A DNA stretch of 60,528 nt from Patescibacteria group bacterium (GCA_036391995.1 DASVYU010000034.1:1-60528), one strand, 5' to 3'; positions 21,550 to 49,628 are shown, numbered from the stretch's first letter. Numbers and translations are program-made. The notes: a model not told the origin generated them from the sequence alone.

Positions 21550-21581
21550 TCTCAAATATTTGCAATTGCAACAAGTTGAGA
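21550..21581. repeat. 32-bp palindrome copy 1
   Basis: TCTCA-AATAT-TTGCAATTGCAA-CAAGT-TGAGA. Confidence 0.85.
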
Positions 21582-21594
21582 CAGTTGATATAAT
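21566..21594 (+). promoter_or_regulatory. Sigma70 promoter of the PaaX-like gene, with -35 inside the palindrome
   Basis: TTGCAA (21566-71), 17 bp, TATAAT (21589-94). Confidence 0.7.
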
Positions 21595-21628
21595 ATCAAT
21601 AAGTATTATTTCTAAAAAAGAGAAAGTA

Positions 21629-21661
21629 TCTCACAAAGTTGCAATTGCAACAAATATGAGA
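21629..21661. repeat. Palindrome copy 2
   Basis: TCTCA-CAAAG-TTGCAATTGCAA-CAAATA-TGAGA (N5/N6), 11 bp before ATG 21673. Confidence 0.85.
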
Positions 21662-21672
21662 CAAAAATAAAA

Positions 21673-22287
21673 ATGGGCAAAAAAACTGAAAAGAGAAGCA
21701 CTTTTGAGAAGCTGGAAGATTTTTATAACTCAGATAGTGCTTCAGCTACGGCCACGAAATTCATTCTAGGAGCTTTGATTGCTGGACCATTGCTGTTTGT
21801 CGGTGCTGCCTTGCCTGGAATTATTACCATGGCAAATGAATTTGATGGTTCAAGGAAATATTCCAAAAAACAGTTTCAAAACTCTTTTCGAAATTTGAAA
21901 TATAGGAAGCTTATTGAGATCATTCAGGAAAAAGACGGGAAAGTGAGGGTGCAACTGACAAACAAAGGAAAAAAGCGCATCAAGGAATTCCAATTCGAGA
22001 ATCTTTCGATCGCAAAACCCAAGAAATGGGATGGGAAGTGGCGGATCCTGATTTTCGACATTCCGTCGAGACCGAAAATAAACAACCAGGCGCGAGAGGC
22101 TCTCAGGGGAAAAATAAAGGAATTGGAATTCTATCAGATGCAGAAGAGCGTCTGGGTTTACCCCTATGAATGTGAAGACGAAATCCTTCTGATTGCGGAA
22201 GTTTTCGGGGTGCAAAAGCATATAGAAATAATCACGGCGGAAAAATTGCTTCATGAAGGAAAAATAAAACACGCATTCGGCTTATAA
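21673..22287 (+). CDS. PaaX-like protein (wHTH + Cas2-like central domain)
   Basis: wHTH end VQLTNKG; WDGKWRILIFDIP...REALRGKIKELEFYQMQKSVWVYP. Confidence 0.85.
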   Translation: MGKKTEKRSTFEKLEDFYNSDSASATATKFILGALIAGPLLFVGAALPGIITMANEFDGSRKYSKKQFQNSFRNLKYRKLIEIIQEKDGKVRVQLTNKGKKRIKEFQFENLSIAKPKKWDGKWRILIFDIPSRPKINNQAREALRGKIKELEFYQMQKSVWVYPYECEDEILLIAEVFGVQKHIEIITAEKLLHEGKIKHAFGL

Positions 22288-22337
22288 AGTGTTTTTTGAT
22301 ATAAATATGCAATAAGCATGCATTTATGTGCAAATCA

Positions 22338-22369
22338 TCTCAATATTTTGCAATTGCAAATATCTGAGA
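22338..22369. repeat. Palindrome copy 3
   Basis: TCTCA-ATATT-TTGCAATTGCAA-ATATC-TGAGA, 50 bp after the PaaX-like stop. Confidence 0.85.
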
Positions 22370-22451
22370 CGGCTTTGGTTTATAGGATGCTGGGTGTGGA
22401 GCATGTAATACAAATAAAAAAGGCGGTGCCGTGATAGGCTCCGCCTTAAAG

Positions 22452-22676
22452 TCATTCTCGTCCCTTTTCTAGAAAAATTTCACCCCTTACATAAATAAAG
22501 GAATCTAGCTCGGCCGAAAGATTGATTTGGTCTAAAAGTTGGACTAACCAACCAGATTCTTCATAAATGTCTGGGATGGAAAATCCTTTTTCTTTTGCGC
22601 TGGCTAGCGCCCGCTCTACGCAATGGAAAAGAGAAGGTTTCATTCCTACGCATGCGGACACTTCAATGCGTTCCAT
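22452..22676 (-). CDS. Small hypothetical protein (74 aa)
   Basis: SD AAAAGGAG upstream; last gene of a leftward three-gene run. Confidence 0.65.
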   Translation of the reverse strand: MERIEVSACVGMKPSLFHCVERALASAKEKGFSIPDIYEESGWLVQLLDQINLSAELDSFIYVRGEIFLEKGRE

Positions 22677-22739
22677 AATATGTCTCCTTTTCTACTGATC
22701 TTTTCTGATCTAAATATATACGCCAATATACCAAGATCA

Positions 22740-22985
22740 CTAGCCGCAATCAACATCAACACCATTAACTTTCATTTTTCCTTGAAGGACAGTGAAGATT
22801 CTGCCATTCAGAACATAGAACTCAGTCTCTTCAATTAAAATATTGTCCCCAATTTTGAGATGTATGTCGATTTCGGTATTGCAATCGATAAATGCGTCTC
22901 CAAATTCGGTTGTTACGATTGCAGCAGTTTTGTTCTTGATAAAAGCTGCGATTTTTCCTTCCAGCGTTGATACTTTTGGATACAT
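22740..22985 (-). CDS. Small hypothetical beta-rich protein (81 aa)
   Basis: SD AAGGAGG upstream of ATG. Confidence 0.7.
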   Translation of the reverse strand: MYPKVSTLEGKIAAFIKNKTAAIVTTEFGDAFIDCNTEIDIHLKIGDNILIEETEFYVLNGRIFTVLQGKMKVNGVDVDCG

Positions 22986-23109
22986 GACAGCCTCCTTTTT
23001 ATTTGAGGTGATTAAATTGTGTAAGAACTTTTCTCCTATAAACCCGCCGCTGCGGTGGGCTCAATGAGAGAGGGAAGAGAAATTGGTTTTTCTCTTCCAT
23101 GATTGTTAA

Positions 23110-23337
23110 TCACCTCTTGGAGGGGTGAAATCGCAGGGTTCTTTCGTCGGTTGTTGTTTTACCACAGATTTCGACTTCGGAGAGAAAGGTGAGGTCCCAG
23201 TAATTATAAAATTGTTCTGCTCTTATGCATTCTGATTTTCCGAATTGGGCTTTGCGGTGCTGAATATATGCCATTACTTCATCCAATTCCGCTAGCTCTT
23301 TCTGCAGTTTTTCTTTTCTTTCCAGTATGGTTTTCAT
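23110..23337 (-). CDS. Small hypothetical protein (75 aa from MKTILERKEK; ORF can extend to 23409)
   Basis: SD-like AAAGGGAG upstream; N-terminal coiled coil. Confidence 0.65.
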   Translation of the reverse strand: MKTILERKEKLQKELAELDEVMAYIQHRKAQFGKSECIRAEQFYNYWDLTFLSEVEICGKTTTDERTLRFHPSKR

Positions 23338-23420
23338 GGCAATCTCCCTTTCTATGTTTGAGGTGATTAATTTATGAATGTACTTGTTAAGAGTGAATCC
23401 GTTATTCATCTTAACACCGT

Positions 23421-23449
23421 AGTATACTCCAAAATAAGTAAAATGTCAA
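23421..23449 (-). promoter_or_regulatory. Leftward sigma70 promoter
   Basis: Minus strand TTGACA, 17 bp, TATACT. Confidence 0.75.
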
Positions 23450-23519
23450 TAATGATGCCTATTAAAATAGCAATAAAATACCTAAAATAAGCCAAATAAA
23501 AAACATGTAGTCAGTATTA

Positions 23520-23548
23520 TTGACATAAATAATAACATAAGATATAAT
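23520..23548 (+). promoter_or_regulatory. Consensus sigma70 promoter; the TrmB-like gene is probably leaderless
   Basis: TTGACA, 17 bp, TATAAT; ATG at 23555, 6 nt after the -10. Confidence 0.8.
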
Positions 23549-23554
23549 AAGAAT

Positions 23555-24274
23555 ATGGAAATGGAAACCGTCTTACAGCATCTGGGACTCAATGAAAAGC
23601 AAGCCAAAGTATACTTGGCTGTTTTGCAGCTGGGCAAAGGCTCTGTGCCAGCCATTTCCATCAAAGCTGGGACCAAAAGGCCGACGACATACCTGCTTTT
23701 AGAGGAACTGCGCATGAAAGGCTTGGTCAATCTGCTGCCACGCGCCCAGAAAGTGCTCTACACTGCCAACTCTCCTGAGCAGCTCTTGGAAGAGCAACAG
23801 GAAAAGGAGCGCTTGATCAAAGCCAACATGCCTGAGCTCATGGCTATGTTCAACGCTAAGAAGGAAAAGCCGAAAGTGACTTATTACCAAGGGGAAGATA
23901 GCGTGGTGAAGCTTTACGATGAGATATTCAAAGAGAAGGAGATCTTTTTTTACGGCTCTATCGGCTCCATAAGTCCAAAAGTGTATAAGCAAGTAGAGAA
24001 ATACTTGCCGCGCATCGAAAAGGATCAGCTGGATGTGCGGGAAATCCTGCAGGCCGACGAGAAATCCATCCAGTTCGCCAAAGACACGGTTTCAGAAACG
24101 CACAGAATCAAGCTGGTGGGCCAGCAATATAAGCTTCCGACCGACAACATGATCTTCGGCAACAAGGTGGCCATCATAACCTACAAAGACGAGCCCATGG
24201 CTGTGGTCATCGAAAGCTCGGATGTGGTTGAGACATATAGGTCCATGTTTGAGATGGTGTGGAACAGCATTTGA
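23555..24274 (+). CDS. TrmB-family transcriptional regulator
   Basis: LGLNEKQAKVYLAVLQLG...TKRPTTYLLLEELRMKGLV; C-terminal IFGNKVAII...AVVIES...YRSMFEMVW. Confidence 0.88.
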   Translation: MEMETVLQHLGLNEKQAKVYLAVLQLGKGSVPAISIKAGTKRPTTYLLLEELRMKGLVNLLPRAQKVLYTANSPEQLLEEQQEKERLIKANMPELMAMFNAKKEKPKVTYYQGEDSVVKLYDEIFKEKEIFFYGSIGSISPKVYKQVEKYLPRIEKDQLDVREILQADEKSIQFAKDTVSETHRIKLVGQQYKLPTDNMIFGNKVAIITYKDEPMAVVIESSDVVETYRSMFEMVWNSI

Positions 24275-24301
24275 CACCATCCGATACTATTTCCGGTATC
24301 G

Positions 24302-24333
24302 TCTCAATATTTTGCAATTGCAAATATCTAAGA
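24302..24333. repeat. Palindrome copy 4
   Basis: TCTCA-ATATT-TTGCAATTGCAA-ATATC-TAAGA; 36/39 identical to copy 3 including flanks. Confidence 0.85.
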
Positions 24334-24400
24334 TGGTCTCATTTTGCTGAACATAGAATATAAAAAATAGGTGCGGCTGCAAAGCTGCGTTTTTTTGTGC

Positions 24401-24440
24401 TTGACAGGAACTAAGAATAATATATACTTAGAACATCTAA
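24401..24440 (+). promoter_or_regulatory. Promoter of the marR-efflux operon with putative MarR operator
   Basis: TTGACA (24401) ... TATACT (24423); imperfect palindrome TTAG-AACAT-CTAA (24428-40) over the expected TSS. Confidence 0.55.
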
Positions 24441-24458
24441 CAATTTTATATTCTAACA

Positions 24459-24869
24459 ATGAGCAAAGATATAGACAGGATTGTTTCCTTGATCTTCGCT
24501 ACTCGCAGGCTTATCCATGAGCAGACTGCGGGAAAAAGCCAGGGAAATTGCTCCTTCATGCATATGGCGACTTTAGTCTTCATTAAGGCAAAAAAGCCGC
24601 TAATGAAGGATATTGCGGACTTTTTGGGGATTGCTCCGCCCTCAGCTACTTCTTTAGTGAATACTCTGACAAAGACGGGACTGGTTAAGCGTGAACAGGA
24701 TATGCATGACCGTCGGATCGTAAGAATTACAGTTACAAAAAAAGGAGAGCAGCGCTTGGCGGGCGGCAAAAAGCATGTCGAAGAAAAAATGCGTAAGCGT
24801 TTGGAAAAACTTAGTTTGAATGAGCAGAAAGAATTAATCAAGATTTTGGAAAAAATCGTAAATGAATAA
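24459..24869 (+). CDS. MarR-family regulator
   Basis: IADFLGIAPPSATSLVNTLTKTGLVKR...DRRIVRITVTKKG. Confidence 0.93.
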   Translation: MSKDIDRIVSLIFATRRLIHEQTAGKSQGNCSFMHMATLVFIKAKKPLMKDIADFLGIAPPSATSLVNTLTKTGLVKREQDMHDRRIVRITVTKKGEQRLAGGKKHVEEKMRKRLEKLSLNEQKELIKILEKIVNE

Positions 24870-24874
24870 AGATT

Positions 24875-25741
24875 ATGAGTAAGAAAACAAGAAACATCGC
24901 ATTGGGAGCAATTATTGCTGCTGGTGTGGCTTCTAGTGCATACATTTGGGTGAGTTTCGGTTATAAGCCGAAAAGCGAAGATGCTTTGGCCATCTCGGGC
25001 GCAAAGGAGGGCAACATGGTTTTGGACGGTAGCGTGGTTGCGGAAAAAAGCGCAGATTTGGGGTTCGTGCTGCCTGCAAAGATCACTTCTATCGCGAAAA
25101 AAGTGGGAGACAGCGTGAAGGGCGGAGAGGTTCTGGCAACTGAAGACAGCAGTGATATGGCGGCGCAGGAGAATGCAGCCCAGGCCAATGTGCAAAGTGC
25201 CCAAGCTGCTTTGGACGGCCTTAGCAGCAATCTTAAGGTGCAGAAGCTGAAACTCAAGGGTTTGGATGGCAATGATCGCAAGATCCAGAAAGCTCAAATC
25301 GAAAGCGTAGAAGCCAGCATTGATGCGCAAAACAGCGCAGTTGCTGCTGCCAAAGACAGTGCCGCAAGTCTCAAAGCCCAGCTTTCCAAAGCTGTTTTGC
25401 TTGCTCCATTCGATGGCATCGTAACTCGTCAGGATGCTGAAATCGGGGAAGTGGCTGGAGCCAGTGTGCCTTCATTCATGACGATTGAATCGAATGGTCC
25501 GATGGATAAGATTGAAGCTTATGCTAGTGATTTGGATGTGGCCAATATTAAAGTTGGAGATGCTGCTCAAGTAAAATTCGATATAACCGGAACAGAAGAA
25601 TTTTCAGGCAAGATCAGTGAGATCGGCCCGGCTGCAGACAGGGGAGCAAAAAAAGGAACATATAAAGTAACTGTGATATTGGATAAAGCCAATGGTGCGC
25701 TTAGGACCGGTATGCATGCCAGTGTGATTTTTGCTAAATAA
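24875..25741 (+). CDS. Efflux membrane-fusion (HlyD/RND adaptor) protein
   Basis: N-terminal TM; VKKVGD-like lipoyl half; coiled coil; LLAPFDGIV; LRTGMHA. Confidence 0.88.
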   Translation: MSKKTRNIALGAIIAAGVASSAYIWVSFGYKPKSEDALAISGAKEGNMVLDGSVVAEKSADLGFVLPAKITSIAKKVGDSVKGGEVLATEDSSDMAAQENAAQANVQSAQAALDGLSSNLKVQKLKLKGLDGNDRKIQKAQIESVEASIDAQNSAVAAAKDSAASLKAQLSKAVLLAPFDGIVTRQDAEIGEVAGASVPSFMTIESNGPMDKIEAYASDLDVANIKVGDAAQVKFDITGTEEFSGKISEIGPAADRGAKKGTYKVTVILDKANGALRTGMHASVIFAK

Positions 25742-25767
25742 TTTCAATAGGACAACAATCAAAACAT

Positions 25768-26424
25768 ATGGAAACAATCAACGAAGAAAAAAAGCCACAG
25801 TTGCCAGCCAAAAGCAAAAGCACTCGCAGTGCGGCTGTGCTCGGAATAACGCTTTTGCTGATGATTGCTGCAATCGGTGCATTCTATCTGCTCGTAACGC
25901 GCAATCAGATCTATACGGACAAGGCGGACATTGAAGCGCCGGCAATTACGATTTCACCAGCAGAAAGCGGAACTTTGCAAAAGCTTTTGGTTGGTGATGG
26001 CGACAAAGTTGCCGCTGACACTGTCGTAGCGCAAGTCGCCGATCAAGTTTTGCGTTCACAGGACAGTGGAATCGTGATTGATGCTCCCAATAATGTGGGC
26101 AAAACAGTCAGCTCCAATGAACCTGTCGTGACAATGATAAATCCCAAAGATTTGCGCGTTGTTGCGCATGTCGATGAAGACAAGGGATTGAGCGGTATTA
26201 AAGTCGGACAATTAGTTTCTTTTACTGTGGATGCATTCGGATCCAAGAAATATGCCGGCACGGTTGATGAGATAAGTCCGACATCGCGTCAGTCAGGAGT
26301 CGTGTTCAACATTTCTGATCAAAGGGAGGTTAAGCAATTCGATGTGAAGATCAAATTCGATATCAACAAATATCCAGAACTCAAGAATGGCATGTCTGCT
26401 AAGGTGACGATCTACAAAAACTAA
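25768..26424 (+). CDS. EmrA-like HlyD-family secretion protein
   Basis: TM anchor; LLVGDGDKV; VKVGQ-type motif; TVDAFG; LKNGMSAKV. Confidence 0.88.
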   Translation: METINEEKKPQLPAKSKSTRSAAVLGITLLLMIAAIGAFYLLVTRNQIYTDKADIEAPAITISPAESGTLQKLLVGDGDKVAADTVVAQVADQVLRSQDSGIVIDAPNNVGKTVSSNEPVVTMINPKDLRVVAHVDEDKGLSGIKVGQLVSFTVDAFGSKKYAGTVDEISPTSRQSGVVFNISDQREVKQFDVKIKFDINKYPELKNGMSAKVTIYKN

Positions 26425-26435
26425 GATAAGGATTT

Positions 26436-26574
26436 TGAGAGCAGCATATTTTTTGATTTCTTTCTTTAGCCAATCCCTAAAGCCACAAAAATGTACAAGG
26501 CGAGAAACTTTTTGACAAAAGAAAACTTTAACTTGCCACGCGGCTTAAGAAATCAAAAAAATATGCTGCTCTCA
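26436..26574. repeat. About 140-bp intergenic element with 26-bp terminal inverted repeats
   Basis: TGAGAGCAGCATATTTTTTGATTTCT / AGAAATCAAAAAAATATGCTGCTCTCA (one indel). Confidence 0.75.
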
Positions 26575-26599
26575 TTTTAAAAAAAAGAAAGACTCTGCA

Positions 26600-28087
26600 A
26601 TGATAAAAAAACACGTAAACAATGACAATTTGAAGTGGTGGGTGCTTTTCACGGTGATCGTGGGAACTTTTTTGGGACGTCTGGATCAGACGATTGTGAA
26701 TCTGGCGTTGCCCAAAATCATCAGCGATTTCGGCATCACTGTTTCGTCAGCTGGTTGGATCGCGACGGCTTATATTTTGGCCAACGCAGTTTTTGTGCCG
26801 GTTTGGGGAAAATTAGGGGATGTATACGGGCAAAAAAAAGTCTACATCCTAGGTTTCAGCCTTTTCATTTTCGGTTCTATTCTGGCTGGAATTGCTTGGA
26901 ATCTGAGCTCCATGATTGTTTTCCGTGTGATCCAGGCAATCGCTGGCAGCGCTGATTATCCGACAGCCATGGCTATTTTGGCCTACACTTTCAAACCCGG
27001 CAAAGAAAGGGCGCAAGCGCTGGGCATATGGTCATCTTCATTTGCGGCAGCTTCAGTCTTTGGGCCGCTTTTAGGCGGCCCATTGATTGATAATTTCGGC
27101 TGGCGCAGCGTGTTTTTGATCAATTTGCCGATCGGTATTCTTGGAGTGTTGCTGGCAATGACATTTGTGCATGAAGGCGGCAGACATTTCAAGGAACACG
27201 CCTTTGATTGGTGGGGAGCTATCACGCTTGGGATGTCTCTCAGCTCCTTTGTTTTGGTTTTGGACAAGGGTCTGGAATGGGGATGGCTGAGTTCCAATAG
27301 CATGATCGCATATTTTGTCACTTTATTTTTCGGCTATGTTTTCGTGCGTATTGAGCAAGGACATCATGATGCCATTGTGGATCTGAAATTCTTCCGTAAT
27401 AAGATTTTTGTAAATGTGCTGGCCAATAACTTCTTGGTGTTCATGACCATGATGGGCAGCGTGTTTTTGATTCCTATTTTCGCTCAGACATACTTGGGTT
27501 ATGATGCGACGCAAACCGGCATGTTGTTCATTCCAATGGCATTCATGATTGTTTTGGCTGCGCCTTTGGGAGGTCGCCTGACTGGCAAGGTGGAGCCTCG
27601 CTGGGTAATAATGGCTAGCACTTTGGTAGCCGGGATAGGATTGTATCTTTTCTCCTTTTTGGACCCTAAGTCTTCAGCCCTGGCTATTATCATACCGCTT
27701 TCAATTATGGCTTTCGGTATGGGGTTCGGAATGGCCCAACGCACCAATATCATCGCTTCAGCCGTACCACAGAATGAGATCGGTGCAGCTTCATCAGTGC
27801 TTGCGTTGGCACGTAACATTGCGGGAGCTTTCGGTATTGCCGTGTTTGGAACCATTCTGCAGAACGTTACGAACAGCAAAGTTTTGGAAATCGCCAGAAA
27901 CAGCATTATTCACTCCGCAAACCCTGTTGATTTCAAGGTTGGCACTTCGCTCGTCATCTTGAAAGCACAGGTCGCATCCTATGATTATGTGTTTGTGGTA
28001 GCGGGAATAATGGCGATAATCGGGGCTCTGGGTTCTTATTGGATAAAGGTACAGCACGTTTCAACAGAAAAAGTCCATGTTGAATAG
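26600..28087 (+). CDS. DHA2 (EmrB/QacA) MFS efflux transporter
   Basis: 14-TM pattern; LDQTIVNLALP; GKLGDVYGQKK; GPLLGG...WRSVFLINLPIG. Confidence 0.93.
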   Translation: MIKKHVNNDNLKWWVLFTVIVGTFLGRLDQTIVNLALPKIISDFGITVSSAGWIATAYILANAVFVPVWGKLGDVYGQKKVYILGFSLFIFGSILAGIAWNLSSMIVFRVIQAIAGSADYPTAMAILAYTFKPGKERAQALGIWSSSFAAASVFGPLLGGPLIDNFGWRSVFLINLPIGILGVLLAMTFVHEGGRHFKEHAFDWWGAITLGMSLSSFVLVLDKGLEWGWLSSNSMIAYFVTLFFGYVFVRIEQGHHDAIVDLKFFRNKIFVNVLANNFLVFMTMMGSVFLIPIFAQTYLGYDATQTGMLFIPMAFMIVLAAPLGGRLTGKVEPRWVIMASTLVAGIGLYLFSFLDPKSSALAIIIPLSIMAFGMGFGMAQRTNIIASAVPQNEIGAASSVLALARNIAGAFGIAVFGTILQNVTNSKVLEIARNSIIHSANPVDFKVGTSLVILKAQVASYDYVFVVAGIMAIIGALGSYWIKVQHVSTEKVHVE

Positions 28088-28113
28088 CGTATTAACGCCT
28101 ATGGAAATAACAG

Positions 28114-28143
28114 AAAATACTCGCCTCAAGGGGCGAGTATTTT
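28114..28143. terminator. Bidirectional terminator
   Basis: 12-bp stem AAAATACTCGCC / GGCGAGTATTTT. Confidence 0.8.
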
Positions 28144-28968
28144 TGCAAAGCTTGTATCATTTGTGATTCTGAGTCGAGTTAATTCTAGGGATGGAGATTT
28201 TTCATCATCAATGCCGGAGTGTGTCGTGGTTGCTGTGATGTAACCGGCTCTCTTTACGGCTTCCAATGTTAGTTTGTCATATTTTCCTCCTGGATAGCAG
28301 AAATCATTCACTGGCCTGCCTAGCTCTTTTTCAAGTATGTTTTTGCTGGTGAAAACTTCATCCTTCAATCTCGCTGGAGAAAGATTTTGGAGTTCCACGT
28401 GATTCATCGTGTGGGAGCCGAAAATCATGCCGGCAGCTTGCATTTCTCTGATCTCATCCCAACTCAGATAACTAGGTTTATTGACGTTGTTTATGATTAT
28501 GTAGAAAACGCCGATAAAACCATGCTGTTTAAGGAGTGGAAAAGCCTCATCATAAGCATCTTGATATCCATCATCAAAAGTGAGCACAACAGGTTTTTTG
28601 TCCATGGCAACCGGATTGCTGAAGTAATCAAGTCCCACGGTCGCATAGTTGTTATCTTGTAGCCATTGCAGCTGCTTGGAAAGCGTGTCTGGGGCCACGG
28701 AAAGATTCGTGCCGATCGGATCAGCCGGATTGTTGTAGCTGCGAATAAAATGATACATCATGACCGGCAGCGAGAAAGAGGAAATTTTTTGTTCTGCGGT
28801 AGCGTTTGCCGTTGGTTTGGACTCTGAAAGAGTCTGTGACTCCTGCGCGACATAATTTTGCACAGCTATTACTTGCGGATTGCGCGAAGAAAAGAAAAGG
28901 ACTGCCGCAATGGATCCCAAAACACTGATAGTTGCAAATAATATCAAAAATTTGATTCTCATAAGCAT
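28126..28968 (-). CDS. Polysaccharide deacetylase (CE4/NodB), membrane-anchored; probable start 28968 or 28962
   Basis: PVMMYH; VLTFDDGY; GSHTMNH; FCYPGG. Confidence 0.9.
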   Translation of the reverse strand: MLMRIKFLILFATISVLGSIAAVLFFSSRNPQVIAVQNYVAQESQTLSESKPTANATAEQKISSFSLPVMMYHFIRSYNNPADPIGTNLSVAPDTLSKQLQWLQDNNYATVGLDYFSNPVAMDKKPVVLTFDDGYQDAYDEAFPLLKQHGFIGVFYIIINNVNKPSYLSWDEIREMQAAGMIFGSHTMNHVELQNLSPARLKDEVFTSKNILEKELGRPVNDFCYPGGKYDKLTLEAVKRAGYITATTTHSGIDDEKSPSLELTRLRITNDTSFAKILAP

Positions 28969-29007
28969 ATTATACAATAATAGTCGCATCACGCTAATGG
29001 ATGGATA

Positions 29008-29080
29008 TTGACTTTTGGCTCCGGATGGTGTATAATGGACATATGAAGATGAAAAAAACGGGTGAACAAAGCCCGTTTTT
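29008..29080 (+). promoter_or_regulatory. Promoter plus GGGUGA-loop leader hairpin (copy A)
   Basis: TTGACT, 17 bp, TATAAT, then AAAAACGGG-TGAACAAAG-CCCGTTTTT. Confidence 0.65.
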
Positions 29081-29157
29081 ATTATTTTCTTCAAACTACC
29101 AAGTTAATTAATTTAATTGCCAAGCTGTAGGGGCAGCTGGTACAAAAACAAAAAAAT

Positions 29158-29301: not shown

Positions 29302-29309
29302 AAACAGAA

Positions 29310-29332
29310 TACCGCCGCGAGGCGGTTTTTGT
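29310..29332 (+). terminator. Intrinsic terminator
   Basis: ACCGCC-GCGA-GGCGGT followed by a T tract. Confidence 0.75.
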
Positions 29333-39188: not shown

Positions 39189-39394
39189 AAAAAGCAGGAG
39201 ATGATTTTTTGTTTTCCTAGTCTTCTTCGGACTGGACTACAAAAATGAATTCTAAACAAAAAACAGAGGTTTCATTTTTGTTCGCCTAGACTCCTTCGGA
39301 CCGGACTCCAAAAAAATCATCCCTTGCTTTTTGCGAAAGCATTCCTTTAGTCTTCTTCTGACAGGACTCCAAAAATAATCCCCTTGCTGTTTTT
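39189..39394. repeat. Three degenerate 30-bp direct repeats nested in inverted repeats
   Basis: Units at 39216, 39285 and 39346 (consensus CCTAGTCTTCTTCGGACxGGACTCCAAAAA); outer and inner inverted repeats. Confidence 0.75.
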
Positions 39395-40625: not shown

Positions 40626-40655
40626 TAAGCCAAATAATAAATAAAAAACAAAAGC

Positions 40656-42585: not shown

Positions 42586-42636
42586 ACATCTTTTGATATT
42601 TGTAGTATGTTACGTAACGATTAACGTAACAAAACT

Positions 42637-43045
42637 ATGCTTAACTTTTGGGCCGTGCTTGTTGCTGCCATCATCACTATGGTTATTGGAGGCCTTTGGT
42701 ATTCCACTGCATTGTTTGGAAAAATGTGGATGGAACATTCCGGCATGACCAGGATGAAAATAGAACAGGCCAAAAAAGAAGGCATGGGTAGCGCCTACGT
42801 GACGCTTTTTATTGGTGCCATCATCATGGCTTATATGTTGGCATATGTTATTCAAGTCGCTGCTGCAGTTACTGTCAGTCAGGGATTACTGGTGGCTTCC
42901 GGTTTATGGCTGGGTTTTGTTGCGACAACTTTTTTGGGCAGCGTGCTGTTTGAAAAAAAAGCCTTTGGGATATTATTGGATACACACATTGCATTATTTG
43001 GTGGTTCTTTTGATAGACAGCATAATCTTGATCCTTTGGAAATAA
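42637..43045 (+). pseudogene. DUF1761-family membrane protein frameshifted at an A8 run (42953-42960)
   Basis: N-part (IGGLWYS...FGKMWM...WLGFVA) runs to FEKK. The family-like C-terminus PLGYYWIHTLHYLVVLLIDSIILILWK* is in another frame; deleting one A restores a 135-aa ORF. Confidence 0.75.
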
Positions 43046-43241
43046 TAAAAATGTGCTCGATAGAGCCCAATTGTCTGCTTTATTGGATCCAGCCCAATAT
43101 CTATGTTAATGATTGACAAAGCAAGAGAATTGGCGTATACTGGGCTTAGTTGTAAGTGTCTTACTGGTTTTCGCCTTTTGTGCAGAAAATTAAGAGAAGA
43201 GGTCGCCTTACAAAGTTAACAAGTTCACAAAAGCGAAAACT

Positions 43242-43535
43242 ATGGCAACAAAGCTATACGTGGGAGGTCTTCCGTATTCAACTACGGATGCTGAGCTCCA
43301 AGAGCACTTCTCACAAGCAGGAAATGTGACTTCAGCCATCATTATCATGGATAAGATGACTGGCCGCTCGAAAGGTTTCGGATTCGTTGAGATGTCTTCT
43401 GATGAAGAAGCTCAGAAAGCGATCGAAATGTTCGACAAGAAGGAATTCGGCGGACGCACATTGACTGTCAACGAAGCTCGCCCAATGGAAGCTCGTCCTC
43501 CAAGACGTGATTTCAACGGCGGAAATAGATACTAG
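43242..43535 (+). CDS. RRM RNA-binding protein
   Basis: RNP2 LYVGGL; RNP1 KGFGFVEM; TVNEARP. Confidence 0.96.
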   Translation: MATKLYVGGLPYSTTDAELQEHFSQAGNVTSAIIIMDKMTGRSKGFGFVEMSSDEEAQKAIEMFDKKEFGGRTLTVNEARPMEARPPRRDFNGGNRY

Positions 43536-43556
43536 TCTCAGACTGATTTCTATAAC

Positions 43557-43585
43557 AAAAAACACTCCCTTGGGGAGTGTTTTTT
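43557..43585 (+). terminator. Intrinsic terminator
   Basis: AAAAAACACTCC / GGAGTGTTTTTT. Confidence 0.8.
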
Positions 43586-43608
43586 GTGTGGACAAATGCT
43601 CGAAAAAA

Positions 43609-43660
43609 TGCTAAAATAGAAGCAGATATTTGAAAAGACAGGGTGAGCTCTGTCTTTTTG
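43609..43660 (+). promoter_or_regulatory. Extended -10 promoter plus GGGUGA-loop leader hairpin (copy D)
   Basis: TGc-TAAAAT, then AAAAGACAGGG-TGAG-CTCTGTCTTTT. Confidence 0.6.
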
Positions 43661-43686
43661 TCTTTTAAATCGATTAAAACAAAAAT

Positions 43687-43968
43687 ATGATCAGAGTAGA
43701 CGGGCACACATTTTGGCGCGGAGGCGAGAAAGTCGGTTTCATTGAGGACAATCACATCAAGAATTATGATGGCGACAGGGTGGGATATTATATCGACGAG
43801 CATATTTACAACAGCCGCGATCATAAAGTCGCCTATCTTCTGGATGATTACATCTGTTTCACTGATTCTTCCAAGAAGATCAGGATTGAAGACAATAACA
43901 AAGATGTTTATGGCGGCAGCTTGAACAATGTTCAAAGAGCAGCTGTCAGAGTTTTGCTGGGGGAATAA
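43687..43968 (+). CDS. Small beta-repeat hypothetical protein (93 aa)
   Basis: Repeated G.KVG[FY]I...I / KVAYL hairpin units. Confidence 0.75.
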   Translation: MIRVDGHTFWRGGEKVGFIEDNHIKNYDGDRVGYYIDEHIYNSRDHKVAYLLDDYICFTDSSKKIRIEDNNKDVYGGSLNNVQRAAVRVLLGE

Positions 43969-43990
43969 TATCTTCAAATCTCTTAGAGTT

Positions 43991-44737
43991 ATGGGAGGTG
44001 TGGATTTCAAAAACAAAAGGCTTAATCAGAAGGTTTTTTCAAAAAAAGCCGTTAGAGCAGAATCGAAGCTTAGAAGCCGTGCCTATCGTGAGATAATGCA
44101 GGACAAAGTCACTGCGCATGTCATTGATAAGGCTGCGGAAAAGAGGGTTTTTTATGATGCGCTGCGCAAAAGAGGACTGGCCTCAGGCAAAGGTATTACC
44201 AAGAAAGTAATGAAGCAGGTCTTGGGAGACATTGAACATAGCGGTGAGTTCAGTCACAAGGAAATGCATACTTTGGGAGAGCATTTGATTGGTGGTCCAG
44301 CTTCAGGACGCATCATACGTGAACACAAGCCGCAACCTTCTCATGAGTCAAAAGAAACAGCAAAGCCACGGGTGGACATGCGTAAAATAATCGATGAAAT
44401 AAGATCAAAAAGCCCTTATGGATCGAAAGCTGTTTCAGGAAGTGAAGGCAATACTTCAAGTGCGAGCAGTAATGTATCTAAGTCTAGAATAAATACATCT
44501 TTTGGTGTTAGTGACAAAAATATTCGCGCCGCCGAAGAGCGTAAAATTTTCAAAAGTTTTGAGCCAAGAAGAGAAAGCATGGAAAACAATAGTCAGGCTT
44601 TTGGGCATATCCCCAAAACGCTGCGCAACTTCAATGATCATGCTGACATTAGTGAAGTGAGATCCATGCTTGCTAAGATCCAAGACAAGGCGGATAATTA
44701 TGACGAAGATGACGAAGACCTTAAACAAGCAGTCTAA
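43991..44737 (+). CDS. Basic hypothetical protein (probable start 43991, 248 aa)
   Basis: Long ORF following 43968; low-complexity C-terminal half. Confidence 0.7.
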   Translation: MGGVDFKNKRLNQKVFSKKAVRAESKLRSRAYREIMQDKVTAHVIDKAAEKRVFYDALRKRGLASGKGITKKVMKQVLGDIEHSGEFSHKEMHTLGEHLIGGPASGRIIREHKPQPSHESKETAKPRVDMRKIIDEIRSKSPYGSKAVSGSEGNTSSASSNVSKSRINTSFGVSDKNIRAAEERKIFKSFEPRRESMENNSQAFGHIPKTLRNFNDHADISEVRSMLAKIQDKADNYDEDDEDLKQAV

Positions 44738-44766
44738 AACTCAAAAAATAAAATAACAAAAAACAA

Positions 44767-45816
44767 ATGTTGGATAAAATTTTCTTAGCGATGTTGGTTT
44801 TCATTCCGGTCACGGCAATCGGAAGTTTTTTGCATCTTTCTCCTTCCATTTTGTTTTTTCTTTCAGCTTTAGCAATTGTGCCACTGGCCAAATATATCGG
44901 TGAGGGAACAGAGGAATTGGCAGTCTACACTGGTCCAGCGGTTGGTGGTCTGCTTAATGCGACCTTCGGCAATGCGACCGAATTCATTATCAGCATCTTT
45001 GCTTTGCAGGCTGGTTTGGTGGAAGTAGTGAAAGCTTCAATTACCGGTGCTATTATTGGCAATCTTCTTTTAGTGCTGGGAACAGCAATGTTTGTGGGTG
45101 GGTGGAACAGAAAAAAACAAGAGTTCAACAAGACTGCTTCCATGGCCACGGGATCGACGCTTTTACTAGCCGTGATTGCGCTTGTGATCCCTGCAATTTT
45201 TCTGCTGACAGCTCCCAAAGCGGGCAGCATGGTTATTGAAGAGCTAAGCATCTTCGTTTCCGTTTTCATGATCGTGCTGTACATTGCTAGCATTTTCTTT
45301 ACTCTCGTGACGCATAAGCATTTGTATGCCGAAGAAGTTGGAAAGGCGGAGGCTAATTGGAGTAAAGCAAAAAGCCTTTTGGTGCTCATTTTTGCCACTG
45401 TTGGAGTAGCTTGGATGTCGGAAATATTAGTTAGTTCGATCGAACCTATTGTGAAAAGCTTAGGATGGACGGAGCTTTTCATTGGTATTGTTGTGGTGGC
45501 TGTGGTTGGTAATGCTGCAGAACACACCAGTGCCATCGTGATGGCGATGAAAAACAAGATGGATCTGGCTATTCAAGTCAGCGTGGGAAGTGCTACGCAG
45601 ATTGTGATGTTTGTAGCGCCGCTACTTGTTATGCTTAGTCTGTTTTTCAGGGAACCTATGAGTCTTATTTTTAACACTTTCGAACTGATCGCCATTGTGC
45701 TTTCTGTGCTGATTGTCAATTTCGTAGTGGAAGATGGTGAAAGCAATTGGCTAGAAGGGTTGCAGCTTATGATGGCATACGCGATCATTGCGGTGGCATT
45801 CTTCTTTCATCCCTAA
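44767..45816 (+). CDS. Ca2+/H+ exchanger (CaCA, cax/ChaA-like)
   Basis: alpha-1 GLLNATFGNATE; alpha-2 GNAAEH...GSATQI. Confidence 0.93.
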   Translation: MLDKIFLAMLVFIPVTAIGSFLHLSPSILFFLSALAIVPLAKYIGEGTEELAVYTGPAVGGLLNATFGNATEFIISIFALQAGLVEVVKASITGAIIGNLLLVLGTAMFVGGWNRKKQEFNKTASMATGSTLLLAVIALVIPAIFLLTAPKAGSMVIEELSIFVSVFMIVLYIASIFFTLVTHKHLYAEEVGKAEANWSKAKSLLVLIFATVGVAWMSEILVSSIEPIVKSLGWTELFIGIVVVAVVGNAAEHTSAIVMAMKNKMDLAIQVSVGSATQIVMFVAPLLVMLSLFFREPMSLIFNTFELIAIVLSVLIVNFVVEDGESNWLEGLQLMMAYAIIAVAFFFHP

Positions 45817-45844
45817 ACGGGACAAAATTGTAATATAAAAATCA

Positions 45845-45870
45845 AGGCTCATGCGCTTGCGCATGAGCCT
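45845..45870. terminator. Bidirectional terminator
   Basis: AGGCTCATGCGC-TT-GCGCATGAGCCT between convergent genes. Confidence 0.75.
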
Positions 45871-45893
45871 CTTATATTTCAGATGAAAAGCAG

Positions 45894-46307
45894 TCATTGT
45901 TTCATGCTGAATTTCCTTTTGCGTGGAAACATTTCCACAACCTTGCATTCTTCTGGGGCAGTGTGTTTCTTATGTGTACATACAAATCTGCCAACGACAA
46001 ACACCCAGGTTTTGTCGCTGATAGCATTGCTGCCGCAGACGCCTCTCGTGAAGAGTCCTGCTTGCGGTGACAAATCGAAAGTGGATCCCGGAAGTATGTT
46101 GTTGATATCTCCTCCGGACGGTGTGAATGTCAAAGGACAACGTGGCAGATTATCGGCGGAGATGTTTACAAAATATATTCCATCGCAGCCTCGGCCATTT
46201 TCGTCGGGTGGCAGTATGGTGAAAACATCTCCGAAGCGCAGTTGTCTGTAGAGGCGACTGTATGCAACAGTGTTCTTGAATCTTTCGAAAGAATAGGTTT
46301 CTGACAT
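45894..46307 (-). CDS. Hypothetical protein (137 aa, Cys-containing)
   Basis: SD AGGAGG upstream. Confidence 0.7.
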   Translation of the reverse strand: MSETYSFERFKNTVAYSRLYRQLRFGDVFTILPPDENGRGCDGIYFVNISADNLPRCPLTFTPSGGDINNILPGSTFDLSPQAGLFTRGVCGSNAISDKTWVFVVGRFVCTHKKHTAPEECKVVEMFPRKRKFSMKQ

Positions 46308-46319
46308 GGCGGAACCTCC

Positions 46320-46541
46320 TTAGGGCAGCTGCGCTTCTTTCAGCGCCTCTGTGTCTATCGCAAGCATGATTTTTATAGTATCGGGAAATTTTTTCCGCAG
46401 ACGAGGATGGTCCTGAAAGATCATCTGCAAGCTTTGCATGCATATTTCAGTAGCTTCCGGATGATGCTGATGGTAATTTTGGTCAAGATTATCGCTCAAG
46501 TATTTCACCAGGACCGCTAGGTTTTCAAGGTTCTTTGACAT
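46320..46541 (-). CDS. Small hypothetical protein (73 aa)
   Basis: SD GGAGG upstream; operonic with 45894-46307. Confidence 0.65.
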   Translation of the reverse strand: MSKNLENLAVLVKYLSDNLDQNYHQHHPEATEICMQSLQMIFQDHPRLRKKFPDTIKIMLAIDTEALKEAQLP

Positions 46542-46662
46542 AACAATCCTCCCCTATGTTTTTTGGGATGCATATATATATCATAGCAGAATATGGGAAA
46601 AGGCAAGCTGCGTCAAGGCAGATGAACCCAAGGTTGATTAATATCTCTTTGTGCGTTAGGAT

Positions 46663-47238
46663 ATGGCTTATATGGAAAATATCAAATCAGCACAATTCGT
46701 GAAAGGCGTGATCGGCACAGATCCGCTTTTGGGGGACACTAGGCCGCAAATCGCATTTGTGGGCCGTTCCAACGTGGGCAAGTCCAGTGTGATAAATGCC
46801 CTGACAGGAGTGAAAGGTTTGGCAATCTCATCCTCCACGCCGGGGCGCACCTTGCAGCTCAATTTCTTTTTGGTAAATGGAAACACCTACTTCGTGGATT
46901 TGCCAGGCTATGGCTACTCCAAGACTTCTCTCAAGCAGGCTGAGAAGATGCGCCGCATGATCATGTGGTATTTGGAACAGAACGAATGCAAGCCTCAAAA
47001 AGTCGTGCTTATCATCGATGCCAATGTGGGACCGACCAAATTCGACATCGAAATGATGGAATTGCTCGAGGAGCATCAATATGAAGTCGTTGTGGTGGCT
47101 AACAAAGTGGATAAAATCAAAAGCAGCGAGTTGGTGAAAAAACAGCGCTCCATTGTGGAAAAGCTGGATACTGAAAATATAGTCTATTTTTCTTCCAAGA
47201 CAGGCAAGGGCAGACAGGAACTTTTGGGAGCCATTTGA
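46663..47238 (+). CDS. engB: Ribosome-biogenesis GTPase EngB/YihA/YsxC
   Basis: GRSNVGKS; SSTPGRT; DLPGYG; NKVD. Confidence 0.95.
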   Translation: MAYMENIKSAQFVKGVIGTDPLLGDTRPQIAFVGRSNVGKSSVINALTGVKGLAISSSTPGRTLQLNFFLVNGNTYFVDLPGYGYSKTSLKQAEKMRRMIMWYLEQNECKPQKVVLIIDANVGPTKFDIEMMELLEEHQYEVVVVANKVDKIKSSELVKKQRSIVEKLDTENIVYFSSKTGKGRQELLGAI

Positions 47239-47412
47239 AACAAAGATCATTGCATTGCGTATGAACTTTGAAGGCAAATAATGGTTCTTTTGAGAAAAAC
47301 AAACAGTCCGGAGAGCGGCTCTTTAGAAGGAAAATTTCTTCCCAAAGGAGAGCTGCCCAGCCGGCCACGTTTTGACCCCACTCGCTAAAAGAGTGGTTTT
47401 TTCAGCTCAATA

Positions 47413-47574
47413 TTGACAAGATGGACGTTTTTTGCTATATTTTGATGTAGCACTGAATGTATTGCTGCCCAGAAGGCAGCGTTTTAATTTGTTTATAATC
47501 GTAGACCTCATCTGTCCTGAGTACAGGACAGCTTCTCCTTGGAAAGGAGAAGAAAATAAGGACTAAAACTTTTT
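47413..47574 (+). promoter_or_regulatory. typA promoter and structured 5' leader
   Basis: TTGACA, 17 bp, TATATT; hairpins at 47464-80, 47512-31 and 47532-52. Confidence 0.55.
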
Positions 47575-49362
47575 ATGGAAATCAGAAACATAGCCATCAT
47601 CGCTCATGTGGACCATGGCAAAACGACACTGACGGATGCGATCATGAAGCAGACTGGCATGGTGGAAGAAGGAGTCAGCATGGACAACAACGCGCTCGAA
47701 CAGGAGCGCGGCATCACCATCTATGCCAAAAACACTTCCATTTTCTATCGTGACACTAAGATCAACATCGTAGACACTCCGGGACATGCCGACTTTGGAT
47801 CAGAAGTGGAACGCGTGCTGCGCTCCATTGATTCCGTGGTCTTGGTTGTTGATGCGCAAGAAGGGCCGATGCCTCAGACTCGCTTCGTACTCAAGAAATC
47901 CTTGGAGCTCGGACTCAAGCCTATGGTGGTCATCAACAAGATAGACAAACCGGCAGCTCAGCCTGACATCGTACAGGAACAAGTGTATGAACTCTTTTTG
48001 GATCTTGGAGCAACCGACGAGCAGCTGGATTTTACCACGCTTTATGCAATCGGACGCGAAGGCATTGCCAAGGAACATCTGACTGATGAATCCAGCAATC
48101 TGGAACCTCTGTTGGACATGATCCTTTTGAAAGTGCATCCAGCCAAGGCTGACAAGGATGCCCAGTTGCGCATGCAGCCTTTCAATCTGGGCTATGACAA
48201 CTTCTTGGGACGCTTAGCTGTAGGACGCATCCATGAAGGAACTATCAAGATGGGCGGCACATATGTGCTCAAGAAGATGGATGGCACGATTGAAAAATCC
48301 CGTGTGACCAAACTTTACTCTTTCAAGGGAACTGAAAGGGAAGAAGTGCAAGAAGCTTTTGCTGGTGACATCGTCATGGTGGCTGGTTTTCCGAAGATCG
48401 ACATCGGTGAGACGATTTGCGAAAGTGAAGATCAGGAAGCTTTGCCAGCGATCAACATCGACGAGCCGACAATCTCTTTGCGCTTCTTGGTCAATGATTC
48501 GCCGTTCGCAGGACGCGAAGGAAAATTCGTAACGAACAAGCAGATCCGCGAAAGACTGGAAAAGGAATTGGAAGTGAATGTGGGACTCAAGATCGATTTT
48601 TCCTCATCTGAATATTACATGGTTTATGGTCGTGGAGAATTGCACATTGCGGTGCTGCTTGAAAACATGCGCCGAGAGGGATATGAAATCCAGGTCTCGC
48701 AGCCTCAGGTTATCATCAAGGAAATAGACGGCGTGAAGAGTGAGCCGTTTGAGGAAGTGACTGTGGATGTGCCGAGCGAATTGGCTGGAACGGTTATTGA
48801 AACTCTGGGCAAAAGAAAAGGTATCATGACTGATATGCAGATTCATGGCTCGCAGACGCGTCTGCTTTTCGAAGCGCCAACGCGTGGTATGTTGGGTTAT
48901 CGCGGACAGTTCGTGGTGGACACCAAAGGCGAAGGTATTATGTCTTCTCGCGTGATCGGTTTCAAGCCGTATGTCGGAGACATCAAGAAACGCGAAGTGG
49001 GATCCATGATCTCGAATGGTACTGGAAAAGCTTTGGGATTCTCTTTGGCCAATCTTCAGGAGCGCGGCGTGCTCTATATTCCTGCTGCTACTGAAGTATA
49101 CGAGGGACAGGTGATTGGTAATGTATCCAAGGGTGAAGAGATGACCGTGAATCCTCTCAAGGGCAAGCAGCTCACCAACATGCGCGCCAGCGGAACTGAT
49201 GATGCGATCAACTTGACTCCACCGTGGGAACTTTCCATCGAGCGCGGATTGGAAATCATCAACGATGACGAATATCTGGAAGTCACCCCGCAGTCTGTTC
49301 GTCTCAGAAAGCAATTCCTTAAGGAAACAGACCGCGTAAAGGCAGCAAGAAAGAAAAACTAG
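47575..49362 (+). CDS. typA: Translational GTPase TypA/BipA
   Basis: AHVDHGKTT; ERGITI; DTPGHADF; NKID; GRGELH; [11 protein letters not shown]. Confidence 0.97.
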
Positions 49363-49395
49363 CTTATAGCTTCATTAGCTGCATTAGCTTTTAGG

Positions 49396-49424
49396 AAAAA
49401 TCCCGGCATAAAGTCGGGATTTTT
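49396..49424 (+). terminator. typA terminator
   Basis: AAAAATCCCGGC / GTCGGGATTTTT. Confidence 0.75.
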
Positions 49425-49515
49425 TGTTACGTAGCAAGGTACGTAACACTTTAATGTAAGATTATACACTTACAATGCGGCCGTAGATTAAGTGTATAAA
49501 ATATCTTTTCCCCTC

Positions 49516-49559
49516 AAAGAGTGTCAATTTGTTGCATATGCGTATTTTTGACACTCTTT
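49516..49559. repeat. Variant of the 32-bp palindrome
   Basis: TGTCA-N5-TTGCATATGCGT-N5-TGACA inside the 12-bp IR AAAGAGTGTCAA / TTGACACTCTTT. Confidence 0.65.
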
Positions 49560-49588
49560 TGTTTTCTCGGTTTTTTGTATTTGATCAT

Positions 49589-49628
49589 ATCGTCTCAAGA
49601 TATTGCAATTGCGTAATTTTGAGACGAT
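49589..49628. repeat. Palindrome copy 5
   Basis: ATCG-TCTCA-AGATA-TTGCAATTGCGT-AATTT-TGAGA-CGAT. Confidence 0.8.

Follow-up and report, generated by a model that had tools for sequence, protein, structure and literature searches.

Repressors of the PaaX type, described in Escherichia coli and Pseudomonas (PDB 8A39 and 3L09), carry a Cas2-like domain (PF20803) after a winged-helix-type region and act on long operators made of widely spaced inverted repeats. The E. coli protein binds the 39-bp sequence TGATTC-N27-GAATCA and autorepresses the Px promoter (PMC9493321). We analysed a gene for a short PaaX-family protein in a 60,528-nt stretch of DNA from an ultra-small soil Patescibacteria group bacterium (hereafter the window; coordinates are counted from its first letter). 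The gene lies between copies of a 32-bp palindrome, and matched palindromes bracket most of its relatives in other genomes. With slightly better than even confidence, we read these palindromes as the cognate duplex-DNA sites of the protein that they enclose, the upstream copies serving autorepression and the downstream copy acting as an auxiliary operator.

The window protein shares with PaaX the Cas2-like domain, here after a probable winged-helix-type region, as well as the long operator-like site and, as we infer, repression of its own promoter. It differs in several respects. At 204 amino acids (aa) it is shorter than PaaX (~305-316 aa), lacking the C-terminal ligand-binding helical domain as well as the PF07848 N-terminal domain, and the PaaX model TIGR02277 matches it weakly, collinear over residues 86-176 (19.9 bits against a cut-off of 264.55). 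The window family has a hydrophobic N-terminal helix, a second cognate site past the stop codon and many paralogs per genome. In addition, no paa catabolic genes were seen near the PaaX-like genes in the loci examined, the window included. An initial annotation of the window had noted the gene and its palindromes and had supposed the arrangement to be undescribed; in agreement with this, we found no description of the short PaaX-like family or of the self-bracketed layout in the searchable literature.

Matched palindromes bracket PaaX-like genes

A pattern search of the whole window for TCTCA-N5-TTGCAATTGCAA-N5-TGAGA returned sites at 21550 and 22338 (0 mismatches each), at 24302 with 1 mismatch and at 49593 with 2. 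In 100 dinucleotide-preserving shuffles of the window, the pattern did not occur even with up to 3 mismatches allowed; no copy is expected by chance. A half-site scan added a 33-bp copy with N5/N6 spacers (21629-21661), and a scan for geometry alone (NNTCA-N6-TGC-N4-GCA-N6-TGANN) picked up the variant TGTCAATTTGTTGCATATGCGTATTTTTGACA at 49522. All sites of the initial annotation were recovered in this way, and its placement of the first three copies relative to the promoter, the ATG and the stop codon agrees with our coordinates (Table 1). Among the dispersed repeat families of the window, that of the palindrome is the longest, its copies remaining identical for just 3-4 bp outside the 32 bp.

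Table 1. Features of the window in and around the palindrome-bracketed gene
Feature	Position	Strand	Basis or remarks
Gene for short PaaX-family protein, 204 aa	21673..22287	+	PF20803 match, structure model, alignment
Parts of the 204-aa protein	residues ~29-54; ~61-105; 117-193		Hydrophobic helix; probable helix-turn-helix and wing; Cas2-like domain
Palindrome copy 1 (TCTCAAATATTTGCAATTGCAACAAGTTGAGA)	21550..21581	.	Inner right TTGCAA is the -35 of the PaaX-like gene's promoter
Sigma-70-like promoter, TTGCAA-17-TATAAT with TG extended -10	21566..21594	+	10/12 matches; serves the PaaX-like gene
Palindrome copy 2, 33 bp, N5/N6 spacers	21629..21661	.	Between predicted transcription start and ATG (21673)
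Palindrome copy 3	22338..22369	.	Begins 50 bp past the stop at 22287; faces convergent operon; no promoter overlap
Three small open reading frames (74, 81 and 99 aa)	22452..23409	-	No family match; variable "cargo" between copies 3 and 4
TrmB-like regulator gene	23555..24274	+	PF01978; relatives adjoin PaaX-like genes in many Moranbacteria loci
Palindrome copy 4	24302..24333	.	Begins 27 bp past the TrmB-like stop; 31/32 positions as copy 3
Same-geometry variant TGTCA...TGCATATGCG...TGACA	49522..49553	.	Found by geometry scan; near copy 5
Palindrome copy 5, solo, 2 mismatches	49593..49624	.	Intergenic between convergent genes; extended stem ATCGTCTCA...TGAGACGAT, then T-run

We examined loci from species-representative genomes (80), from a population series (6) and from a motif scan (18), which are labelled L001 and so on. 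For each gene, a de novo search took the best pair of similar 32-bp palindromes lying at most 260 bp upstream and at most 160 bp downstream. Matched upstream and downstream palindromes were found at 72 of 90 PaaX-like genes, compared to 4 of 419 control genes taken from these loci, making bracketing 81-fold commoner around PaaX-like genes than around controls. The association of motif and gene family across genomes that the initial annotation had anticipated is therefore clear.

All sites share a constant geometry of variable 5-bp outer arms, an A-tract/T-tract spacer and a GC-N4-GC core. Position 13 of the half-site is G in 88% and position 14 is C in 100% of cases, mirrored at positions 19-20, and the central 4-mer is usually itself palindromic (ATAT, AATT, GATC, CATG, TATA, CTAG or TGCA). 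Within this geometry, the site sequence is gene-specific. The paralogs L003 and L009, which lie on one contig, carry TCTCA..TGCGATTGCA and ACTCA..GGCAATTGCA, respectively, and same-contig paralogs differ likewise in L008/L022, in L027/L030, and between the two genes of L064 and the two of L080. Since the sites of paralogs differ on a single contig, the reader of the palindrome must be encoded locally, which excludes a universal host factor in this role. This pattern had also been predicted, in that each PaaX-like paralog was expected to have its own variant of the palindrome.

The motif was also used as the sole query. JGI metagenome contigs held no match to the exact window motif, and an AGTCA-type motif was scanned instead. 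Nine of the 18 metagenome loci obtained with this motif adjoin a PaaX-like gene; the remainder comprise 2 copies after TrmB-like genes, 6 solo intergenic copies (convergent in L101) and 1 likely chance match.

Two of the four control genes that gave a palindrome pair deserve mention. One (L072, 2334-2999, minus strand) is a Y1_Tnp gene of the RAYT/IS200-like type, with an NHFH motif and a PF01797 match. It has the REP-type hairpin TTGTTGGACATCGGAAGTCCAACA on both sides, giving a classical REP-RAYT pair in a Paceibacterota genome that also has PaaX-like cassettes, and serves as a positive control for the bracketing procedure. The other (L040, 3672-4085) encodes a Trp_repressor-family (TrpR-like) helix-turn-helix protein (PF01371, E=4.6e-12); the palindrome ATAC-N-TCGATATATCG, fused to TATAAT, occurs upstream of it at 3637-3665 and again 24 bp past its stop codon at 4109-4133. 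A second regulator family of these genomes may show self-bracketing, or may regulate the next gene.

The palindromes have the symmetry of duplex-DNA sites

In a comparison of 66 site pairs, the two halves mirror each other strongly at half-site positions 1-5 and 13-16 but weakly in the spacer (positions 6-12), and least of all at positions 8-12. Mismatched pairs show no strand bias (72 G:T against 78 A:C), and transversions predominate. A hairpin formed in RNA or single-stranded DNA needs continuous complementarity and tolerates G:U pairs on the transcribed strand. Symmetry blocks split by an unconstrained spacer point instead to a symmetric protein on duplex DNA, and the reading best supported by these patterns is that the palindromes are double-stranded protein sites rather than hairpins.

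Downstream copies of the palindrome are not followed by a T-run. Extended stems with T-runs were seen only at the two solo copies near 49.5 kb, which are terminator-like. Hairpin, terminator and RNA readings of the palindromes were rejected because the symmetry pattern does not suit them, G:U pairs are not favoured and downstream copies lack T-runs. Integron attC sites were rejected as well, as the palindromes are tied to one gene family and not to diverse cassettes; the symmetry pattern also disfavours them.

Upstream copies overlap the promoter and downstream copies do not

A sense sigma-70-like promoter scoring at least 10 of 13 was found at 30 of 66 upstream copies, compared to 6 of 66 in the antisense direction; among downstream copies, 3 of 66 reached this score in either direction. 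The enrichment at upstream copies is significant (Wilcoxon p=1e-6 to 7e-8). The manner of overlap differs between clades. In the window, the -35 TTGCAA at 21566 lies inside copy 1 and the -10 TATAAT at 21594 lies beyond it. For the L006 gene, the promoter TTGACT-17-TAAAAT takes its -35 from the site's outer arm, TTGACT. Members of the Nomura/Paceibacteria clade have an extended -10, TGnTAnnnT, within the right half of a site that stops 2-11 bp short of the ATG, so that their mRNAs would be nearly leaderless. Several loci (L001, L013, L017, L018, L088 and L091) have a second upstream copy in tandem, 79-139 bp from the first. Judged from sequence, a site placed over the promoter of the gene itself is what classical negative autoregulation looks like.

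Downstream copies lie 2-100 bp past the stop codon and are not promoters. The downstream neighbour is convergent in 29 and co-directional in 45 of 74 cases, and a downstream copy is present either way; upstream neighbours are mostly co-directional (62 vs 14). Downstream copies were rejected as operators of the next gene's promoter, since their promoter-likeness is at background in both directions and 29 of the 74 downstream neighbours are convergent. In the window, the hairpin and T-run at 22415-22450 form the terminator of the minus-strand operon, not of the PaaX-like gene.

The enclosed protein is a short, Patescibacteria-specific relative of PaaX

The identification of a PaaX/Cas2-fold gene in the initial annotation is borne out by a match of residues 117-193 to PF20803 (PaaX_M, the Cas2-like middle domain of PaaX) at E=2.4e-19 and 69.7 bits, against a cut-off of 24. 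There are weak matches to a phage transcriptional regulator family (PHROG) at residues 61-105 and to Cas2 at residues 122-165 (PADLOC Cas2_II, E=9e-4). An AlphaFold2 (AF2) model has a mean predicted local distance difference test (pLDDT) score of 69.5, rising to ~90 for residues 120-204, and shows a helix (65-77) and a beta-hairpin (81-95) followed by a confident beta-alpha-beta-beta-alpha-beta domain. A Foldseek search with the Cas2-like domain gave 9h6t_A as the best match (E=8.8e-4) and then many Cas2 chains, with PaaX 8A39 among the best. Neither the family profile nor the Cas2-like domain gave a useful match in sequence searches of the PDB.

When 66 diverse members (35-100% identity) are aligned, the fully conserved residues W119, D120, K122, W123, R124, D129, R141, Q157, S159, P164 and E170 all belong to the Cas2-like domain. 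G99 is the only fully conserved residue outside it, and the putative DNA-reading region is variable. The N-terminus holds an apolar stretch of ~25 residues. The Kyte-Doolittle maximum over 19 residues is 2.14 in the window protein, and a window above 1.6 occurs near the N-terminus in 91% of the 66 homologs (median 2.15), so that this helix is predicted to be a membrane anchor. The helix had been omitted from the initial annotation, as had the recurring link to TrmB-like genes described below and the family-wide bracketing; its sites and gene call themselves stand.

Close homologs number more than 1,190, and every named one comes from Moranbacteria, Parcubacteria or Patescibacteria. A profile search returned 3,676 related clusters at 50% identity, and the best 150 of these are 87-282 aa long, mostly 180-240 aa. 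Viral contigs yielded one weak, fragmentary relative without palindromes; the family is not typical of phages. The short PaaX-like family is Patescibacteria-specific, with several paralogs per genome.

Further copies and neighbouring genes

Third copies of a palindrome occur a few kb off, with 0-2 extra sites per 20-kb locus and 5 sites in the 60-kb window. A recurring position is 7-27 bp past the stop codon of a TrmB-like gene, as in the window (24302), L011 (12955), L014 (15347), L087 and L104. In the window, L011 and L014, this copy differs from the one downstream of the PaaX-like gene at 1, 1 and 0 positions, respectively. The copy in the window sits upstream of the TrmB-like gene's intrinsic terminator (24369-24392). 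In the Moranbacteria loci L012, L031, L021, L089 and L102, the TrmB-like gene is directly upstream of the PaaX-like gene and its 3' palindrome is the upstream copy of the latter. The TrmB-like protein was rejected as the reader of the palindrome, given that bracketing goes with the PaaX-like gene and is also seen where a clade lacks the TrmB-like neighbour.

Copy 5 and the variant at 49522 both lie between the terminators of two convergent genes and, together with copy 4, agree with the earlier remark that sites also occur after gene 3' ends. TGTCA-type sites bracket a paralog in L008, and the variant would most simply belong to another paralog, which the same genome encodes outside the window. 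The gene-free stretch between the two terminators is ~260 bp long and may hold a small transcript. More short inverted repeats (TTACGTAGCAAGGTACGTAA; GTAAG...CTTAC) are found at 49428-49520, from the typA terminator to the solo palindromes. Directly 5' of palindrome copy 1, at 21507-21535, there is a 15-nt unit, ATAATATTCTAGTTA, repeated 1.9 times.

The palindrome-to-palindrome blocks of L011 and L014 that correspond to the one between copies 3 and 4 hold genes different from the window's small open reading frames. Two of the latter (22740-22985 and 23110-23409) have a common conserved leader, AATCACCTCAAA... on the minus strand, at 23002-23030 and 23357-23385, just 5' of their starts. The TrmB-like region (23370-24270) has approximately double depth in all four public soil-metagenome runs that hold the window. 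A second, diverged TrmB-like copy parts from the window at 23370 and again at 24270, a little short of the stop codon, and therefore lies in another context, without the palindrome flank of the window.

Neighbours of PaaX-like genes are housekeeping genes (rpoB/C, trmD, recA, ssb, thrS, ftsK and others) or TrmB-like regulators. Gene order is kept in Nomurabacteria (rpsP-KH-trmD-gene-rpoB-rpoC) and in the P0073 population (PaaX-like gene, four small open reading frames, rpoB), and one identical PaaX-like protein occurs in a single context on 20 contigs. The bracketed gene lies just upstream of rpoB-rpoC in two separate clades, represented by L081-L086 (gene at 6001-6636 in L081) and by L033, L036, L040 and L042. 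Between the close strains L081 (4395-4572) and L084 (4559-4751), a ~190-bp segment upstream of an Amidase_2 gene is inverted; it adjoins a hairpin-rich region (L081, 4200-4340).

Elsewhere in the window, a 28-nt unit, TAGWCTYCTTCGGACNGGACTMCAAAAA, occurs three times in an intergenic region at 39218-39375, with spacings of 69 and 61 bp. These could be a hairpin-like array or stacked terminators, and have no Rfam match at gathering thresholds.

A model for the bracketed gene and its alternatives

We propose that a dimer of the protein would be seated on the palindrome's dyad, with its variable helix-turn-helix and wing regions reading the variable outer 5-bp arms and its conserved Cas2-like dimer facing the invariant GC-N4-GC core; the A/T-tract spacer would be read by shape at most. 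These contacts are assumed from the match between the conservation patterns of protein and DNA. Bound to the upstream copy or copies over the -35 or -10, the protein would repress transcription of the gene that encodes it, like E. coli PaaX at Px. The copy past the stop codon is most likely an auxiliary operator, which could loop cooperatively with the upstream copies, or could block RNA polymerases entering or leaving the gene from co-directional or convergent neighbours. The gene and its two cognate sites would then form a self-contained autoregulatory module, insulated from transcription of its neighbours, and the few further copies would be extra targets, such as the 3' end of the TrmB-like regulator gene. 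Because specificity is carried inside the module, it could diversify into many mutually orthogonal paralogs, and it may occasionally be duplicated or moved as a unit.

This model agrees with the first of two put forward in the initial annotation, an autoregulated repressor, which the comparative data support well, in that the palindrome travels with the gene across the family, has paralog-specific variants and lies on the gene's own promoter in its upstream copies. The "tetramer-sized" operators of that proposal are not needed, as the known site of E. coli PaaX is already 39 bp long (PMC9493321). The regulon that it invoked does include a few sites beyond the gene's own flanks, but it would be very small and is made up mostly of those flanks.

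Several observations weigh against the operator reading. Besides PF20803, the protein has no match at Pfam thresholds and no Pfam helix-turn-helix match at E of 0.01 or below, and the AF2 model scores pLDDT 43-66 in the N-terminal half, including the putative DNA-binding region. The conserved transmembrane-like helix stops ~10 residues before the putative recognition helix, which is awkward for a conventional repressor. Mutual information between the 66 proteins and their half-sites, with average product correction (APC), showed clade-level correlation only and no enrichment in the putative recognition helix. To our knowledge, an operator just past the repressor's own stop codon is not a known general design. 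The remaining points concern recombination. Of 206 ends of blastn matches (80% identity or more), 19 (9.2%) lie no more than 25 bp from a family-type palindrome, compared to 1.5% expected, part of this excess reflecting conservation of the gene and its sites. Imperfect flanking copies are often identical to each other, with 0 differences over 32 positions in L016, 1 in L003, 1 in L080 and 2 in L078, and in L065 the second copy is an exact inverted copy within a 53-bp terminal inverted repeat. Such concerted evolution of the flanking copies is not predicted by selection for binding alone.

These last observations are better accounted for by a mobile or recombining cassette, the second model of the initial annotation, in which the palindrome-gene-palindrome unit is excised, inserted or exchanged at the palindromes. 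Solo copies would be targets or scars, the small open reading frames and TrmB-like genes inserted cargo, and the Cas2-fold protein would promote the reaction or guide host recombination and repair. We consider this unlikely as the principal explanation but a serious rival, and further traces of movement are consistent with it. L005 (6673-7456) and L006 (9867-10650), on different contigs of the same metagenome-assembled genome, are 97% identical over exactly 784 bp, comprising 17 bp, a palindrome, the gene, a palindrome and 6 bp, with unrelated flanks; the L005 copy carries a nonsense codon. L022 is 82-83% identical to L096 and L103 from palindrome to palindrome only, with no similarity of the flanks even in protein. 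L083 and L084 are 99.8% identical until 2 bp past a third palindrome, where a segment of 88% identity with an extra PBP gene follows before identity returns to 99.7%. The copies in the window, L011 and L014 differ by 0-1 bases around unrelated cargo. In addition, the fully invariant polar residues (D120, K122, R124, D129, R141, Q157, S159 and E170) all lie in the Cas2-like domain, and D129 directly follows its first beta-strand (123-128), at the place of the conserved Asp of Cas2.

However, such a cassette lacks an enzyme and runs against stable synteny. The 204-aa protein shows none of the HUH, DDE, tyrosine or serine recombinase signatures, its family matches being just PaaX_M and weak Cas2, and the clade-wide gene orders and the protein held in one context on 20 contigs speak for stable placement. 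Copy number is low, no target duplication pattern was seen, and the ends have no uniform architecture (17 loci have direct-like and 9 have inverted-like flanking copies). Logan contigs of the four soil-metagenome runs holding the window showed no joints at palindromes, although rare excision products are invisible in contigs, as opposed to reads. Long palindromes can also be breakpoints merely through fragility, and the symmetry pattern suits a double-stranded operator rather than a hairpin. The cassette is thus not established, and the two models are not exclusive, as general recombination at palindromes can move an autoregulatory module. More doubtful still is a self-propagating form, in which a membrane-anchored Cas2-fold protein would drive recombination, nicking or copying at its own sites with no recombinase of the HUH, DDE, tyrosine or serine type, solo sites being docking points and TrmB-like or PBP genes being captured between sites.

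The conserved N-terminal helix could alternatively mean that the protein is a membrane-tethered DNA anchor or organiser, pinning its own and a few other loci, with secondary effects on transcription. Sites at non-promoter positions, including convergent intergenic regions, would fit such a role. We regard it as quite improbable, given that the upstream copies lie precisely on the gene's own promoter elements, that very few sites per paralog would serve chromosome organisation poorly and that the topology is a prediction. We find it very improbable that the palindromes act at the RNA level, as hairpins in the 5' and 3' untranslated regions that are bound or cut by the Cas2/VapD-like domain. There are RNases among Cas2 and VapD relatives, copy 2 lies in the predicted 5' untranslated region, downstream copies are probably transcribed, and predicted hairpins reach -9.5 to -18 kcal/mol (z-scores of -2.7 to -5.4). 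Against this, copy 1 and most upstream copies hold the -35 or -10 and are untranscribed or partly transcribed, the 6-7 nt spacers of the two sides do not pair with each other, and neither an excess of G:U over A:C on the sense strand nor T-runs after downstream copies were found. Finally, we give hardly any credence to generic REP-like repeats or terminators unrelated to the enclosed protein. The two solo copies near 49.5 kb do resemble terminators, and a true RAYT gene with REP hairpins exists in a related genome (L072), but this reading is strongly disfavoured by the association statistics, by locus-specific variants within a family-wide geometry, and by the PaaX-like genes at half of the motif-only loci.

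Significance and comparison with known systems

The genomes of Patescibacteria (the candidate phyla radiation) are tiny and very few of their regulators have been characterised, and a family of ~3,700 clusters may rank among their main DNA-binding protein families. With two sites of its own per gene, the family would supply many natural protein-operator pairs, which could yield data on the recognition code and orthogonal repressor/operator parts. A site past the stop codon is unexplained by standard operator logic, and may reflect either an insulation principle in compact, co-directional genomes or a new kind of cassette mobility. The conserved hydrophobic helix suggests that DNA is bound at the membrane. 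If the self-propagating cassette were true, it would represent a Cas2-fold protein with sequence-specific DNA processing outside CRISPR.

Several described systems share part of this layout. REPIN-RAYT and IS200/IS605 elements likewise place a small gene of ferredoxin-like fold between palindromes, with solo intergenic copies often found after gene 3' ends. However, the window protein has no HUH or Y1_Tnp (PF01797) match, no His is conserved at 80% or more in the 66-protein alignment, and the palindromes are not continuous hairpins, are low in copy number and have gene-specific variants. The ~32-bp length, the dyad around a short palindromic centre and the position of copies on the flanks of gene modules recall loxP (13-8-13), dif (11-6-11) and pdif. 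In contrast to those, positions 8-12 beside the centre are the least symmetric, a symmetric centre gives no directionality, no recombinase is found in or beside the PaaX-like cassettes, and the cassettes are single-gene units.

Residues 117-193 share their fold with Cas2 and VapD, together with an acidic residue after the first beta-strand (FDIP), and a Cas2 dimer contacts duplex DNA in Cas1-Cas2 complexes. Unlike Cas2, the domain in the window protein is joined to a hydrophobic helix and a probable DNA-binding region, and sequence similarity is marginal. The window has no CRISPR repeat array, and Cas1 was not among the 19 larger neighbour gene families read in the loci, although no search was aimed at cas1. 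The protein is neither a PaaX orthologue, nor Cas2, nor a RAYT/IS200 transposase.

Lambda cI (OR/OL), lac (O1/O2/O3) and gal (OE/OI) pair a promoter operator with an auxiliary operator hundreds of bp away. The window likewise has its putative auxiliary site across the coding sequence, a layout compatible with cooperative looping. It differs in that the layout is a conserved, family-wide trait with the auxiliary site 2-100 bp past the stop codon; looping and oligomerisation are putative here. By analogy, the closest parallel to how the system would work is a PaaX-type repressor that regulates itself and has an auxiliary operator in the manner of lambda cI or lac. It would differ from such repressors in a downstream operator conserved throughout a family, a predicted membrane helix, and radiation into many orthogonal paralogs in Patescibacteria.

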